DNA from: Dermatophilaceae bacterium
GTDB taxonomy: Bacteria; Actinomycetota; Actinomycetes; Actinomycetales; Dermatophilaceae
Direction: 5' to 3'
Assembly (NCBI GenBank): GCA_035448065.1
Contig: DAOTIG010000002.1
Location: 234-64,233 of the forward strand
Length of the DNA: 64,000 nucleotides
The notes beneath the pieces were generated by a model, which saw only the letters and a list, made by a program, of their open reading frames with translations, was not told the DNA's origin and searched no databases. Shown piece by piece: positions 29,477 to 33,546 of this stretch (positions are counted from its first letter, which is position 1; each line of letters opens with the position of its first letter). Position numbers and translations under genes: made by a program.

Positions 29477-30118
29477 TCACCGCCGGGTCGGCGGAGGGGC
29501 GTCCGGGTCGAGGTAGGCCTCGAGCTCCTCGACCCGCAACGTGTAGCCCTCCGGGAGCTCGGCGATCCGCTGGGTGATCCGCGGTCCGGTCTTGATCGTG
29601 TACACGCAGCCGTCGCTGGAGGAACAACCGCCTCGCAGATGCAGGCTGTCCTTCCGCAGGTTGGGACCGTGGGACACGCCCGCTTGTGTCCAGCCAGCCG
29701 CGGCCGCGGCTCGCGCCACCGCCAGCTCGACGGCCGGGAACTCGGTCGCCGGTGGCTTGCCGAAGCTCACCGTGATGTCGGCATCCCACCAGCCGGCGTC
29801 GTCGGTGTGGTAGCCCACCCAGAAGAAGGCGCTGGCATAGCGAAGACCGCCGGCAGCCAGCACCGGCCGCCAGGCCGCGACCAGTCGGGATCGGAGCTCG
29901 CTGCGCGTCTGGCCCGGGTCGGAGGGCAGGCCGGTGATGGGATCGAATGGGCGATTCGGCTCGGGCGACCGCGGGCTCGACGACCCAGGCGACTGCGCCG
30001 CAGGAGCACCAGGCGTAAGGTCACAGGCGCCAACGCTGCAGAGCACCGACACGATCAGCAGGAGCACGGGCCACGCCAGGCGTCGACTCGAGGCAGACAC
30101 CTCGCGGCCTGCGGTCAT
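29477..30118 (-). CDS. Lipoprotein, paralogue 3 of a tandem triplet
   Basis: MTAGREVSASSRRLAWPVLLLIVSVLCSVGAC... ...PEGYTLRVEELEAYLDPDAPPPTRR. Its ATG overlaps the paralogue 2 stop (ATGA, 30115-30118). Confidence 0.7.
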   Translation of the reverse strand: MTAGREVSASSRRLAWPVLLLIVSVLCSVGACDLTPGAPAAQSPGSSSPRSPEPNRPFDPITGLPSDPGQTRSELRSRLVAAWRPVLAAGGLRYASAFFWVGYHTDDAGWWDADITVSFGKPPATEFPAVELAVARAAAAAGWTQAGVSHGPNLRKDSLHLRGGCSSSDGCVYTIKTGPRITQRIAELPEGYTLRVEELEAYLDPDAPPPTRR

Positions 30119-30741
30119 CGCCGGGTCGGCGTCGGGGCGGCCGGGTCGAGGTAGGCCTCGAGCTCCTCGACCCTCAGGGTGTACCCCTCCGGCACGGGCG
30201 CAACCTCTTGGGTGATCCGAGACCCCGTCTCGATGACATAGCTGCAGCCGTTGACGCTGCACGCGCCCCGCAGCTGCAGCGGACCCCGGCGCAGGTTGAG
30301 CGCATGGCTCACTCCCGCTTGTCCCCAGCCATGCTGCGCGGCTGCGCGTGTCATCGCTTGCTCGATCTGCGGCCATTCGCTCTCCGGGTGCACGCCGAGG
30401 TTCACGACGATGCTGCCGTCCCACCACCCCGCGCCGTCGGTGTGATAGTGAGTCGCGAACCGGGCGCTCTGGTAGCGCAACCCACTGTCCTGCAGCACCG
30501 GCGACCACGCCTCGACGAGGCGGCGACGCAGCTCATCCCGGGCCTGGCCAGGGTCGGCGGGCAGGCCGGTGACCGGGTCGTAGGGTCGGTTGGGATCCGG
30601 CGACGCCATGCTCGACGACCCGGCCGCGGGAGCACCAGGCATGGGGAGACACGCACCAAGGACACCGAGCACAGCGAGGAACGCCAGGGTCGCCCCGCCC
30701 GCGCGTCGGCCCCACTGCCCCTGCCGATGCAGGTCACTCAC
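30115..30741 (-). CDS. Lipoprotein, paralogue 2 of a tandem triplet
   Basis: GTG start overlapping the paralogue 1 stop (GTGA, 30738-30741). (M)SDLHRQGQWGRRAGGATLAFLAVLGVLGAC... ...PEGYTLRVEELEAYLDPAAPTPTRR. Confidence 0.7.
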   Translation of the reverse strand: MSDLHRQGQWGRRAGGATLAFLAVLGVLGACLPMPGAPAAGSSSMASPDPNRPYDPVTGLPADPGQARDELRRRLVEAWSPVLQDSGLRYQSARFATHYHTDGAGWWDGSIVVNLGVHPESEWPQIEQAMTRAAAQHGWGQAGVSHALNLRRGPLQLRGACSVNGCSYVIETGSRITQEVAPVPEGYTLRVEELEAYLDPAAPTPTRR

Positions 30742-31361: not shown

Positions 31362-33241
31362 TGCTGGTGTCCTGAGGTGGGGGTCCGTCGGCTCTCGGGG
31401 TCAACCTCGATGGTGGTCGAGCCGCGATAGGTCGTCACGGTCTCGGTGCGGCGCGACTGCGCGAGCATGCCGTGCTCGTCCAGCGCGTCGCCGTTGCCGG
31501 TGGCGATGTCGGCAAGCGCGTAGAGGGACTCGCAATGGGTTGCGTCGTCGTAGTACTTCGAGTGGTCGTCGAACTGCCACGGCAGCCCGGACTGTCGGGT
31601 GATGTTCTCGGCCCTGAACCGCGTCGCACCGAAGTCTGCATGGGAGGGGTCGTGACCGAGTTGACTGTAGGTCGTGGTCACAACGTCCCGACTTGCCGAG
31701 CCCACATACAGCCGGTCGGACGTGAGGTGGAGATCGCTGACCGTGCGAGCGTCACCACCGACGCCGGGGCTGCCGATGAGCGCCACCTGGTCGACGTCGT
31801 CGGCGAGTCCGTAGCGCTGCAGCGCCAGTCCGGTGGTGGTGCTGCCGTAGGAGTGGGCGACGACCGTGACGTCGACGTCCCCCGCGTGGGTAACGGTGAG
31901 GCCGTGGACATCGGCAGCAAGCAGCCGGGCCCCCGCGTCGGCCTTGTCCTGGAACATCACATCGTCGAACTCGGGAGCGTCATAGCCCTGCCACGCGATG
32001 ACCGCCGTCGACGCCGGATCGGCGCGTCGAGACTCCTTGTAGAGGGCGAGCGCGTCCCCGCCGATCTGGTCCATCTTGCTCACTCTCGACTCCAGGCCAG
32101 GAACGCAGAGTGCGATGTTGGCCGCCGTGTCGGGGTTACCGAAGGCGATCGCCGCGCGCCCCTCGCCATGGTAGAGATCGGCGTCATAGGCAAGGAGGAA
32201 CGTCGGAGCATCCCGGAGGTCGGCTGCCCGCAGAGTTCGCTCGGTCATCAACGCGTCCTTGTACCGTTCCATCAGCTCGTCGGCAGCGGTGTCGAGGTCG
32301 ATGTAGTAGCCGTGGTTGTCCAGGCCGAGCTTGCGGCGGTCCTCGATGCTGAGCTTCTCGAAGCCCTGAACAGTGGCCGGCGGTGTGACGCCACGGTCGA
32401 GGAAGTACTGGCGGTAGCGCGCGAGGTCCTGGTCGAGGACGGTCCGGTTGGCCCAGTCCCGGTCGACGACGGGAACGCCCTTGGTGTTCCCCCACAGCTT
32501 GGGGTCGGCGGCCAGCATCGTCTGTCGCTCGCTCGGTGAGAGCGAGTCCCAGAACCGCTTGACCTCCTCCGGGGAGCTGGGCGCGGTGCTGAGTCCGGCT
32601 CGGGCGAGCAGCTCCGCCGAGCTGCGGGAACCGACCAGGCCGGCGGCGAGCGCCGACTGCCCGGGCCGGCCACCGGGCAGGGCGATCTGGCGGGCCAGTC
32701 CAGCCAGCACCGCGCCGCACTCGTCCCGCGCGCCGGTCACCCGACGGCGGACGCCCTGGTGTGCCGCGTCGATGTCGGCGACGCTGGCGAATCCGGCCGC
32801 GGCGGTCGCCGCGGCGAACTCCGACAGCGCCCGGTCGTAGGCCTGCTCCTGGCGCGGCTCGATCCAGTCGCCGAACGCGGCGAGGCGGCGCTGCGCGGGC
32901 TCCAGCGCGGCATACGCGCGATTGAGCTCCTCGACGGTGGCGCGCCCACGGACGAGCTCGGTGCCGTAGTCCTCGAGCGCGGTGCGGGCGCTCGACAGCG
33001 CGGCCGGCGCGTCGGCGACGAAGGCATCGAGCCGGCCGGCGCTGGTGTATGCCGCGTCGCCGGCCGTGCCGTCGGACCAGGCCGTGCGCACCCGCGGGAC
33101 GCTGTCGTGGACGTCCCTCGCGAGCGTCGTCGCCGCGGTGTGCTGCCGACCGAGCATGGTTGCCAGTCCCGTGACGCTGGACGGGTGGTCGCCGACCGTC
33201 GGGTAGTGCCCGCCGGCCCCGCCTCCCCCGCCGTCGAGCAT
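31358..33241 (-). CDS. Two-domain protein: N-terminal helical (WXG100/T7SS-signal-like) region plus C-terminal DUF1023-type alpha/beta hydrolase
   Basis: 627 aa. The C-terminal half has IAFGNPDTAANIALCVPG...VIAWQGYDAPE...VTVVAHSYGSTTTG (nucleophile elbow) ...ALIGSPG. The N-terminal roughly 250 aa is Ala-rich helical, with no signal peptide. Confidence 0.7.
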   Translation of the reverse strand: MLDGGGGGAGGHYPTVGDHPSSVTGLATMLGRQHTAATTLARDVHDSVPRVRTAWSDGTAGDAAYTSAGRLDAFVADAPAALSSARTALEDYGTELVRGRATVEELNRAYAALEPAQRRLAAFGDWIEPRQEQAYDRALSEFAAATAAAGFASVADIDAAHQGVRRRVTGARDECGAVLAGLARQIALPGGRPGQSALAAGLVGSRSSAELLARAGLSTAPSSPEEVKRFWDSLSPSERQTMLAADPKLWGNTKGVPVVDRDWANRTVLDQDLARYRQYFLDRGVTPPATVQGFEKLSIEDRRKLGLDNHGYYIDLDTAADELMERYKDALMTERTLRAADLRDAPTFLLAYDADLYHGEGRAAIAFGNPDTAANIALCVPGLESRVSKMDQIGGDALALYKESRRADPASTAVIAWQGYDAPEFDDVMFQDKADAGARLLAADVHGLTVTHAGDVDVTVVAHSYGSTTTGLALQRYGLADDVDQVALIGSPGVGGDARTVSDLHLTSDRLYVGSASRDVVTTTYSQLGHDPSHADFGATRFRAENITRQSGLPWQFDDHSKYYDDATHCESLYALADIATGNGDALDEHGMLAQSRRTETVTTYRGSTTIEVDPESRRTPTSGHQH

Positions 33242-33546
33242 CAGATGCCGCCGATCCGACGCTCGGCCCGGTCGTAGCGCTGGGAGGCCTGCGCCTCGGC
33301 CCCGGCATATCCGGCGGACGCCGACCGGAGGTTGCCGCCGAGCGCACCGAGGGCCAGGCCGACCGCATTGAGCGCGTCGGACCAGGTGTCGCGGAAGGTC
33401 GCGAGCTCGGCGGCGATGGTGACCGGCTCGGGCGGAAGGGTTGCGCTCCGGACCGCCTGCTCGATGGCCTCCGCGTCCGGAGCAAGGCCCGCGATCGCCT
33501 GACCCTGCTGGGACAGCGCTGCGATCGACACCTCGTAGTCGCGCAT
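33241..33546 (-). CDS. Small helical protein with a C-terminal YxxxE motif (ESX/T7SS-substrate-like)
   Basis: 101 aa: MRDYEVSIAALSQQGQAIAGL...SQRYDRAERRIGGI. Its stop overlaps the hydrolase ATG by 1 nt (33241). Confidence 0.55.
   Translation of the reverse strand: MRDYEVSIAALSQQGQAIAGLAPDAEAIEQAVRSATLPPEPVTIAAELATFRDTWSDALNAVGLALGALGGNLRSASAGYAGAEAQASQRYDRAERRIGGI

Follow-up and report, generated by a model that had tools for sequence, protein, structure and literature searches.

A five-gene operon of a sludge Dermatophilaceae bacterium as a candidate type VII secretion cassette of an effector hydrolase and lipoprotein immunity proteins

An operon for a small helical protein, a DUF1023 hydrolase and three lipoproteins

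We have analysed an operon of five overlapping genes, referred to as g1 to g5, that runs on the minus strand from position 33546 down to position 29477 of a 64-kb stretch of high-GC actinobacterial DNA (approximately 70% GC). This stretch, which we call the window, is part of contig DAOTIG010000002.1 and comes from a sludge actinobacterium of the Dermatophilaceae. The operon encodes a small helical protein, a hydrolase of the DUF1023 family and three lipoproteins, and we put at roughly 55% the probability that it is a substrate cassette of an ESX-type type VII secretion system (T7SS), with the hydrolase as effector and the lipoproteins as immunity candidates. An open reading frame (ORF) listing and direct reading of the strand placed all five genes where an earlier note, made from the sequence alone, had located them, and third-position GC content (GC3) supports the coding status of all five frames. 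The junctions also read as that note described them at 33241 (TGATG, a 1-nucleotide overlap), at 30741-30738 (GTGA) and at 30118-30115 (ATGA), but the ATGA it claimed for the g2/g3 junction at 31361-31358 is in the sequence a TTGA, so that g3 starts with TTG. The only strong ribosome-binding site of the operon is a Shine-Dalgarno sequence, GGAGG, read at 33551..33555 of the minus strand, 5 nucleotides 5' of the g1 ATG. Neither g4 nor g5 has a Shine-Dalgarno sequence that we could recognise on reading the DNA, and the translation of both is therefore probably coupled through the stop/start overlaps. The exact g2 protein and the identical five-gene layout are found on at least six independent contigs from ENA, JGI and Logan metagenomes; because of this recurrence, and because the order of small protein, hydrolase and lipoprotein is kept in distant genomes, the arrangement is, as judged by comparison, not due to chance.

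The product of g2 (33241-31358, minus strand; 627 amino acids by ORF reading) ends in an alpha/beta-hydrolase domain of the Abhydrolase_8 (DUF1023) family, which we delimit to aa 346-627 (31358..32206, minus strand) from Pfam, from the catalytic triad and from structural neighbours. Residues 359-527 match PF06259 with an E value of 5e-32 and 111.4 bits, against a gathering cut-off of 20.5, and the AHSYGS nucleophile elbow that had led the earlier note to propose a DUF1023 hydrolase lies at aa 462-467. The predicted triad, based on alignment conservation, consists of Ser464 (31850-31852), Asp519 (31685-31687) and His560 (31562-31564), all encoded on the minus strand and all invariant or near-invariant in alignments of 14 and 79 sequences. 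An AlphaFold2 (AF2) model of g2, built on an alignment of 123 sequences, has a predicted local distance difference test score (pLDDT) of 92.3 and comprises four long helices, a helical module at approximately residues 205-345 and an alpha/beta core. When this model was compared with the PDB using Foldseek, the neighbours were carboxylesterases, cutinases, lipases and PETases (E values from 6e-5, probability 1.0), the cutinase cores giving template modelling scores of 0.56-0.64 when normalised to the target. Sequence searches of the PDB with g2 and with g3 returned nothing meaningful.

Neither g1 nor g2 contains a signal peptide or a transmembrane or other hydrophobic segment, and the highest Kyte-Doolittle value of g2 over 19 residues is 1.23, at residue 142. 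The N-terminal region (aa 1-190; 32672..33241, minus strand) is instead modelled, at the pLDDT given above, as a bundle of four helices (residues 20-54, 59-121, 129-149 and 154-186), in keeping with the earlier description of g2 as a protein with a long helical N-terminus and no Sec signal. We consider the bundle to be WXG100-like on the basis of the AF2 model and of alignments made with hhalign and phmmer. The turn between helix 1 and helix 2 is formed exactly by W55-S-D-G58 (33068..33079, minus strand), which alignment, hhalign and the model identify as the counterpart of a WxG motif with an insertion of one residue. Between the bundle and the hydrolase core lies the helical module (aa ~205-345; 32207..32629, minus strand; P..V..FW..LS..ER..L..DP..GN..G.P..DRD.ANR), which an exhaustive HMMER search with g2 aa 1-345 showed to be conserved more widely than any other stretch and whose near-invariant residues are W231, L234, P247, G251, G255, P257, R261 and N265. 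The search returned 182 proteins, nearly all of 500-670 aa, in which the module is always found together with the hydrolase and which share an architecture of WxG at about residue 45-55, GNLDGIP..DRD.ANR at about 210-250 and GHSYGS at about 420-470. The idea of a polymorphic toxin, whose N-terminal domain would also occur on other payloads, found no support in this search, since essentially all 182 matches have this one architecture. Among its matches we also note four giant proteins, P0034 (5006 aa), P0039 (4709 aa), P0045 (2890 aa) and P0043 (1933 aa), with two to five tandem units of GNLDGIP module plus GHSYGS hydrolase; they may truly contain several hydrolases or may result from the fusion of separate genes in gene calling.

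The last three genes, all on the minus strand, encode predicted lipoproteins that are paralogues of one another. The first, g3 (31361-30738; 207 aa), has a TTG start that overlaps the g2 stop and a lipobox LTAAC with its cysteine at position 26; g4 (30741-30115; 208 aa) starts with the GTG of the GTGA overlap and has the lipobox LGAC (Cys31); and g5 (30118-29477; 213 aa) starts with the ATG of the ATGA overlap and has the lipobox VGAC (Cys32). All three show a basic n-region, then a hydrophobic core and the lipobox, and contain two further cysteines; the pairwise identities of 62-70% (g4 is 63% and g5 70% identical to g3) agree with the three paralogous lipoproteins originally proposed. Across the mature core the synonymous divergence (dS) is 0.7-1.4 and the ratio of nonsynonymous to synonymous divergence (dN/dS) 0.17-0.45, values that indicate old, maintained duplicates under purifying selection; g4 is placed among them because its own dN/dS is 0.21-0.45 at a dS of 0.8-1.4. 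The 3' ends of the paralogues are unusually similar, the final ~90 nucleotides of g5 being 93-96% identical to those of g3, which suggests either gene conversion or strong constraint. The g3-type family, for which there is no Pfam or NCBIfam model, amounts to 19 clusters among 5.8 billion proteins; homologues of g3-g5 are labelled Dermatophilaceae, and the homology search also returned a near-identical g4 protein (P0002) from other samples. In public gene calls for the identical locus g3 is 165 aa and g4 164 aa long (134 aa in one case). Because the true TTG and GTG starts overlap the preceding stop codon, these calls begin past the signal peptide, and the lipoprotein nature of g3 and g4 is consequently lost in existing annotation. 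Truncation of two of the three lipoprotein genes by public callers means that immunity candidates of this kind are systematically hidden from annotation.

Links of the family to type VII secretion and to lipoproteins

The connection to T7SS is most apparent in the relatives of g1 and g2. Homologues of g1 (33546-33241, minus strand; a two-helix protein of 101 aa by ORF reading) lie directly upstream of every g2-clade hydrolase examined. Small ORFs in the equivalent position were drawn from 80 genome loci of related hydrolases, and among the 45 that were scanned 21 matched T7SS_ESX_EspC (best E value 2.7e-10) and nine WXG100 (best 4.7e-11), the remaining matches being to DUF6317 (nine), DUF2563 (eight) and PE (one). 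When the family of g1, which has eight members, was aligned by hhalign with the EspC-type upstream ORFs of mycobacteria, it aligned over its full length (89 columns) with a probability of 70.6% and an E value of 3.9e-5. In addition, the g1 homologues upstream of the hydrolases of loci L006 and L008 gave full-length matches to PF10824 that are below threshold (E values of 0.16 and 0.075). The YxxxD/E motif that the earlier note had pointed to is at the very end of g1, which does finish in YDRAERRIGGI, but this Y91xxxE95 is kept in just three of the eight family members. A second such motif, Y80-A-G-A-E84 (33295..33309, minus strand), is conserved much better in the family alignment, with the tyrosine in six of eight members and an acidic residue at +4 in all eight; it superposes on the YxxxD of the EspC-like proteins in the hhalign comparison and is likely to be the T7SS export motif. 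An LP..P turn and an [FY]xxxWxD helix are further conserved features of the family. With positional equivalents that match EspC or WXG100, and a full-length alignment in which the motifs coincide, we read g1, with moderate confidence, as a divergent EspC-like partner or targeting factor of the WXG100 clan that may serve g2.

Evidence of the same kind comes from the N-terminal region of g2. Among 79 relatives found through this region there are nine matches to WXG100 (best 3.3e-7), six to PPE, four to WXG100_2, three to T7SS_signal (best 1.1e-7, over the cut-off) and three to Hydro_N_hd. The mycobacterial hydrolases of loci L009 and L013 match TIGR03930 (WXG100_ESAT6) with E values of 4.3e-8 and 2.8e-5, and an hhalign comparison of the g2-clade N-terminus with mycobacterial N-termini of the WxG type, these two included, gave a probability of 87% and an E value of 4e-6, W55 of g2 being paired with the tryptophan of the mycobacterial WxG. 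Furthermore, phmmer pairs g2 aa 29-337 with the protein P0044, whose aa 12-175 match PF21725 (T7SS_signal) with 32.4 bits, over the cut-off. When the g1 family and the N-terminus of g2 were compared by hhalign with single, approximate EspC and EsxA sequences, the probabilities were 5.9% and 2.6%, which is uninformative.

The second regularity is the presence of a lipoprotein gene. Related loci were found with an alignment of 14 sequences; there are more than 500 loci of the family among species-representative genomes, and the closest of these genomes are metagenome-assembled genomes (MAGs) of the Intrasporangiaceae/Dermatophilaceae type and Ca. Lutibacillus vidarii. At 62 of 80 related loci (78%; mostly from Mycobacterium and Mycolicibacterium) an ORF of at least 120 aa with a lipobox lies directly downstream of the hydrolase, as against 5.2% at random positions. 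These downstream lipoproteins form one family, annotated as PF27220 and, in UniRef, as LppJ. A profile of the g3 family aligns with 60 mycobacterial downstream lipoproteins of the LppJ type with a probability of 95.6% and an E value of 1.3e-8, at an identity of approximately 16%, and hmmsearch with the g3 family finds LppJ-type lipoproteins at E values of 4e-6 to 5e-3; on these figures we regard g3-g5 as distant relatives of LppJ rather than as demonstrated members of that family. Every g3-like gene that could be placed adjoins a hydrolase of the g2 clade, the opposite of what would be seen if homologues of the lipoproteins occurred mostly on their own, an outcome that the earlier note had named as counting against its proposal. 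The number of g3-like copies is one at L001, L006 and L007, two at locus A of L002/L003 and three in the window, that is, one to three among relatives in a small sample of genomes. As an observation apart from this, a DUF1023 homologue that is 36% identical to g2 over aa 213-619 occurs outside the Actinomycetota, in Myxococcus qinghaiensis (L082, NZ_JAKCFA010000024.1, 9599-11107), with no lipobox ORF downstream; it may have arrived there by horizontal transfer or may be a contamination.

The position of the operon varies between close relatives. In the window it lies between a convergent 2-hydroxyacid dehydrogenase gene, 36 nucleotides from the end of g5, and a gene at 33642-34565 on the same strand, 95 nucleotides upstream of g1, with a weak match to the repeat of the cadmium carbonic anhydrase CDCA (4e-7, barely over the cut-off). 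The latter gene probably has no part in the function of the operon, since in relatives it is syntenic with RtcB independently of the cassette. A close relative (L002-L005) has a different content in this slot between the 2-hydroxyacid dehydrogenase and CDCA-like genes, namely a hydrolase from another clade (35% identity) and, after it, two lipoproteins in tandem that belong to another sequence family. That relative does have a cassette of the window's type, at a distance of a few kilobases and flanked by RtcB and an acyl-CoA dehydrogenase, where the window has just an exonuclease-family gene. The hydrolase of this second cassette is frameshifted between the module and the hydrolase domain (L002 8929-9149; L003 3540-3760), its two lipoprotein genes are intact, and two independent metagenomes from JGI show the identical frameshift; either the toxin has decayed to a pseudogene while its immunity genes were kept, or both assemblies contain the same error. 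More than one cassette per genome is found in M. shimoidei, M. colombiense and Mycobacterium sp. E796. A contig of an Actinomycetes MAG also carries a second g1-like gene with a DUF1023 hydrolase (30% identical to g2) approximately 3 kb downstream of the first cassette (L007 15002-17079). Finally, GC3 in the window is approximately 0.83 for the three lipoprotein genes and the hydrolase domain and 0.91-0.95 for flanking housekeeping genes.

A few other features of the window deserve mention. The 9-mer GCGGCATAC / GTATGCCGC, with an extended consensus of about cGGTATGCCGCg, occurs 65 times in the 64 kb (32 and 33 copies on the two strands), mostly within coding regions, and is much too frequent for chance; its copies span the whole window, for example at 666, 772, 2935 and so on to 63274. 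It had been suggested that a stretch devoid of this 9-mer marks the operon as part of an accessory island. The largest gap between copies is indeed that from 28183 to 32907, but as evidence for an island it is weak and we have set it aside, with gaps of 4442 and 4029 bp elsewhere and two copies inside g2 itself (32907 and 33047). A scan for sigma-70 promoters and intrinsic terminators gave no sites and is uninformative for this phylum. Two plus-strand ORFs of exactly 884 aa lie near each other at 242-2896 and 4104-6758; in the second, a CHAT (caspase-like) domain occupies the C-terminal part (3e-25), and the two may form a tandem pair of paralogous proteases with a role in defence or signalling.

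Interpretation and competing explanations

The best explanation of the operon, in our view, is that it encodes a T7SS effector together with immunity proteins, a reading that is well supported by comparison but unproven. This effector/immunity logic, which was that of the earlier note, has gained from the T7SS matches across the family and from the lipoprotein pairing at 62 of 80 loci; three of its points were incorrect or too strong, in that g1 and g2 match no T7SS model themselves, the motif cited for it is the less conserved of the two and the claim to novelty no longer holds. According to the reading, g1, as a divergent two-helix protein of the EspC/WXG100 clan, would pair with the four-helix bundle at the N-terminus of g2, and its Y80xxxE84 would come to lie beside the W55xxG58 loop of g2, the two forming a bipartite signal read by the T7SS ATPase. 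The g1-g2 complex would carry the DUF1023 domain, which is of the serine esterase/lipase type (Ser464/Asp519/His560), out of the cytoplasm, presumably by way of a T7SS. The products of g3, g4 and g5 would be exported by the Sec pathway, lipidated at the lipobox cysteine and tethered on the outer face of the membrane, where they may bind and block the hydrolase, or the variants of it made by neighbours, as immunity proteins comparable to EatI for EatA and TilA for TslA. The target would most likely be an ester-linked component of the envelope of competing actinobacteria, either a membrane lipid or a cell-wall ester, and its hydrolysis would presumably be toxic.

Several observations weigh against this reading. 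In direct Pfam and NCBIfam scans g1, g3-g5 and the N-terminus of g2 matched no family; g2 gave no WXG100, LXG, PPE or T7SS_signal match in either collection, even at lenient thresholds, and the hidden Markov model check proposed for the T7SS assignment of g1 and g2 thus came out negative for both proteins themselves. Their links to T7SS run only through relatives, and that of g1 stands at just 70.6%. The column that reads WxG across the family is W-x-x-G in the g2 clade. The N-terminal domain has been seen fused to a DUF1023 hydrolase alone and never to another payload, unlike a typical polymorphic-toxin delivery domain. Among the 62 loci that have a lipoprotein, mostly mycobacterial, 61 have a single copy and one has more, and tandem arrays are for this reason a feature of the lineage studied here. 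Lastly, the hydrolase-LppJ pair appears to reach host-restricted pathogens, which fits a housekeeping function in the envelope equally well.

The last points lead to the main rival to the T7SS effector/immunity reading, namely that the operon is a housekeeping envelope module: the hydrolase would be exported, probably by a T7SS, to remodel ester bonds of the producer's own envelope, and the lipoprotein would be a membrane anchor, an activator or a regulator rather than an immunity protein, with the three copies representing sub-functionalised paralogues. Such a module would account for a hydrolase and lipoprotein pair that is kept, nearly always at 1:1, in organisms as far apart as Dermatophilaceae and many Mycobacterium species, for the constant fusion of the N-terminal domain to one payload and for paralogues that are under purifying and not diversifying selection (dN/dS 0.17-0.45). 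The mycobacterial partner is moreover of the LppJ family, which we take to include the Rv2078-Rv2079-LppJ cluster of the host-restricted M. tuberculosis. A core envelope function would, however, not lead one to expect a cassette from another clade at the corresponding slot in a close relative, a lipoprotein copy number that varies from one to three, a frameshifted hydrolase beside intact lipoprotein genes, several paralogous loci within single genomes, a GC3 below that of flanking genes or a g3-type family as tiny and patchy as 19 clusters. These are traits of accessory conflict loci rather than of core envelope genes, and we consider the housekeeping alternative unlikely, while taking it more seriously than the others.

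We think it quite improbable that the operon has no connection to T7SS at all, in which case g2 would be a cytoplasmic esterase whose N-terminus serves in regulation or oligomerisation or as a lid, g1 would be small and helical but unrelated, and the lipoproteins would be functionally independent despite their co-transcription. Apart from the failure of g1 and of the g2 N-terminus to match any T7SS model, and the fact that WxG and YxxxD/E are short motifs of low information, this explanation draws on the lack of T7SS genes near the operon. A Pfam scan of the large ORFs of the window and a Walker-A screen of its long ORFs for EccC-like proteins found no T7SS machinery, in line with the earlier statement that the window has no ecc or ess genes, and no EccC or other T7SS machinery was found within 10 kb of 85 related loci, a result that, together with that for the window, also counts against the effector/immunity reading. 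The large ORFs that neighbour the cassette, considered as possible machinery, proved to be a BTAD/NB-ARC regulator, SbcC-like proteins, DnaB, ABC transporters, ClpB and others; an EspB-like gene is present at one locus. T7SS substrates are, however, often encoded far from the machinery. At related loci small genes in the position of g1 match EspC, WXG100 or PE above or near curated cut-offs, related hydrolase N-termini match WXG100_ESAT6 and T7SS_signal, and a lipoprotein partner outside the cytoplasm at 78% of related loci would be unexpected for a cytoplasmic enzyme. Less probable still is an effector directed at eukaryotes or at environmental substrates, in effect a nutritional lipase or cutinase, with lipoproteins that only shield the membrane of the producer during export. 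The cutinases, PETases and lipases returned by Foldseek do act on external esters, and the organism, to judge by its metagenome sources, lives amid abundant lipids in activated sludge or a digester; but nutritional exoenzymes are normally Sec or Tat substrates with no need for arrays of cognate inhibitors, and the hydrolase clade and the lipoprotein family vary together, which points to specific protein-protein pairing.

Going beyond the operon itself, it is possible that the cassette represents a T7SS effector-inhibitor module of ancient origin that occurs throughout the phylum, from sludge Dermatophilaceae to mycobacteria and probably including Rv2078-Rv2080. The lipoprotein would be a dedicated inhibitor of the esterase, and the module could be swapped, along with arrays of immunity genes, in antagonism between strains of the phosphate-accumulating Dermatophilaceae of activated sludge; we hold this wider model only tentatively. 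Were the effector/immunity model true, DUF1023/Abhydrolase_8 would gain a testable role as a T7SS-exported esterase and LppJ-type lipoproteins would be its cognate inhibitors, also in mycobacteria, whose genomes contain relevant clusters and in which serine hydrolases are drug-target candidates. T7SS antagonism, reported in mycobacteria in 2026, would then reach actinobacteria that lack mycolates; such hosts dominate wastewater plants for phosphorus removal, and rivalry between their strains may affect how well the process performs there. Were it false, the locus would be a conserved envelope esterase operon. The analysis joins two large uncharacterised families, DUF1023 and the LppJ-type lipoproteins, in one testable module and adds the Dermatophilaceae of wastewater to their range.

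Comparison with known systems

The kind of system to which we assign the operon has already been described, and no new principle is involved; Pfam already contains models, Hydro_N_hd and T7SS_signal, that match relatives of g2. The pairing of lipase or esterase effectors with lipoprotein immunity proteins had been likened to the Tle/Tli systems of type VI secretion, which also combine an esterase or phospholipase acting on the envelope with an immunity protein that is periplasmic or a lipoprotein. They belong to another secretion system, another phylum and other protein families, and the likeness is an analogy only, with no link of the operon to type VI secretion.

A closer functional parallel is TslA of Staphylococcus aureus, a lipase toxin of the T7SSb that is neutralised by the extracellular lipoprotein TilA (Garrett et al., Nat Commun 2023, PMC10730906). 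Export of TslA needs the small helical partners TlaA1 and TlaA2, and TilA is encoded in multiple, non-identical tandem copies of variable number (PMC10730906). The operon shares with this system a predicted payload of lipase type, a small helical protein and tandem lipoproteins, here immunity candidates, in variable number. The order of domains is the reverse, however, TslA having its lipase domain N-terminal and an LXG-like domain C-terminal and g2 a helical N-terminus and a C-terminal hydrolase; TilA is a DUF576 protein and g3-g5 match neither DUF576 nor any other Pfam family; and the T7SSb of Bacillota contrasts with an actinobacterial ESX type. Domain order and lipoprotein family rule out membership in TslA/TilA, and no sequence relationship to TslA, TilA, TlaA1 or TlaA2 was detectable.

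The nearest relatives by sequence are mycobacterial clusters of a DUF2563- or EspC-like gene, a DUF1023 hydrolase and LppJ. They have the same three-part cassette, with hydrolases that are 33-41% identical, N-termini that are WXG100-like and a downstream LppJ/PF27220 lipoprotein that is remotely homologous to g3-g5; they differ in having one lipoprotein (61 of 62 loci), of approximately 16% identity to g3-g5, and in an upstream gene that is often DUF2563 or a clear EspC or WXG100 protein. Presumably Rv2078-Rv2079-Rv2080/lppJ of M. tuberculosis is this cassette. In the literature we found no functional study of DUF1023/Abhydrolase_8/PF06259, DUF2563, Rv2078/2079, LppJ or the cassette, nor any of T7SS in Dermatophilaceae or Intrasporangiaceae; a listing of predicted esterases/lipases does include Rv2079 (PMC13209886).

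The system that most resembles the one we propose is the Eat system of Mycobacterium abscessus, in which the arabinanase EatA leaves the cell by ESX-4 together with a pair of small Tap proteins and is neutralised by the lipoprotein EatI (Benedict et al., Nat Commun 2026, PMC13444075). In a survey across the Actinomycetota, alpha/beta hydrolases were the commonest payload linked to Tap proteins, and toxins that act on the envelope were accompanied by lipoprotein or transmembrane immunity proteins (PMC13444075). The suggestion of the earlier note that such an arrangement was new is therefore out of date, as loci of Tap, toxin and lipoprotein inhibitor that work through ESX-4 were published in 2026 (PMC13444075). 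The operon differs from the Eat loci in its payload, of DUF1023 esterase type instead of a GH183 arabinanase, in having one EspC-like accessory gene instead of two (TapA1/TapA2), in its three tandem LppJ-related lipoproteins in place of EatI and in its non-mycolate Dermatophilaceae host, in which it is known from sequence. The layout is nevertheless alike, in that one or more small helical genes precede a toxin or candidate toxin with a helical bundle and no Sec signal, next to which stands a lipoprotein that acts, or in the case of g3-g5 may act, as its inhibitor, in both instances within the Actinomycetota.

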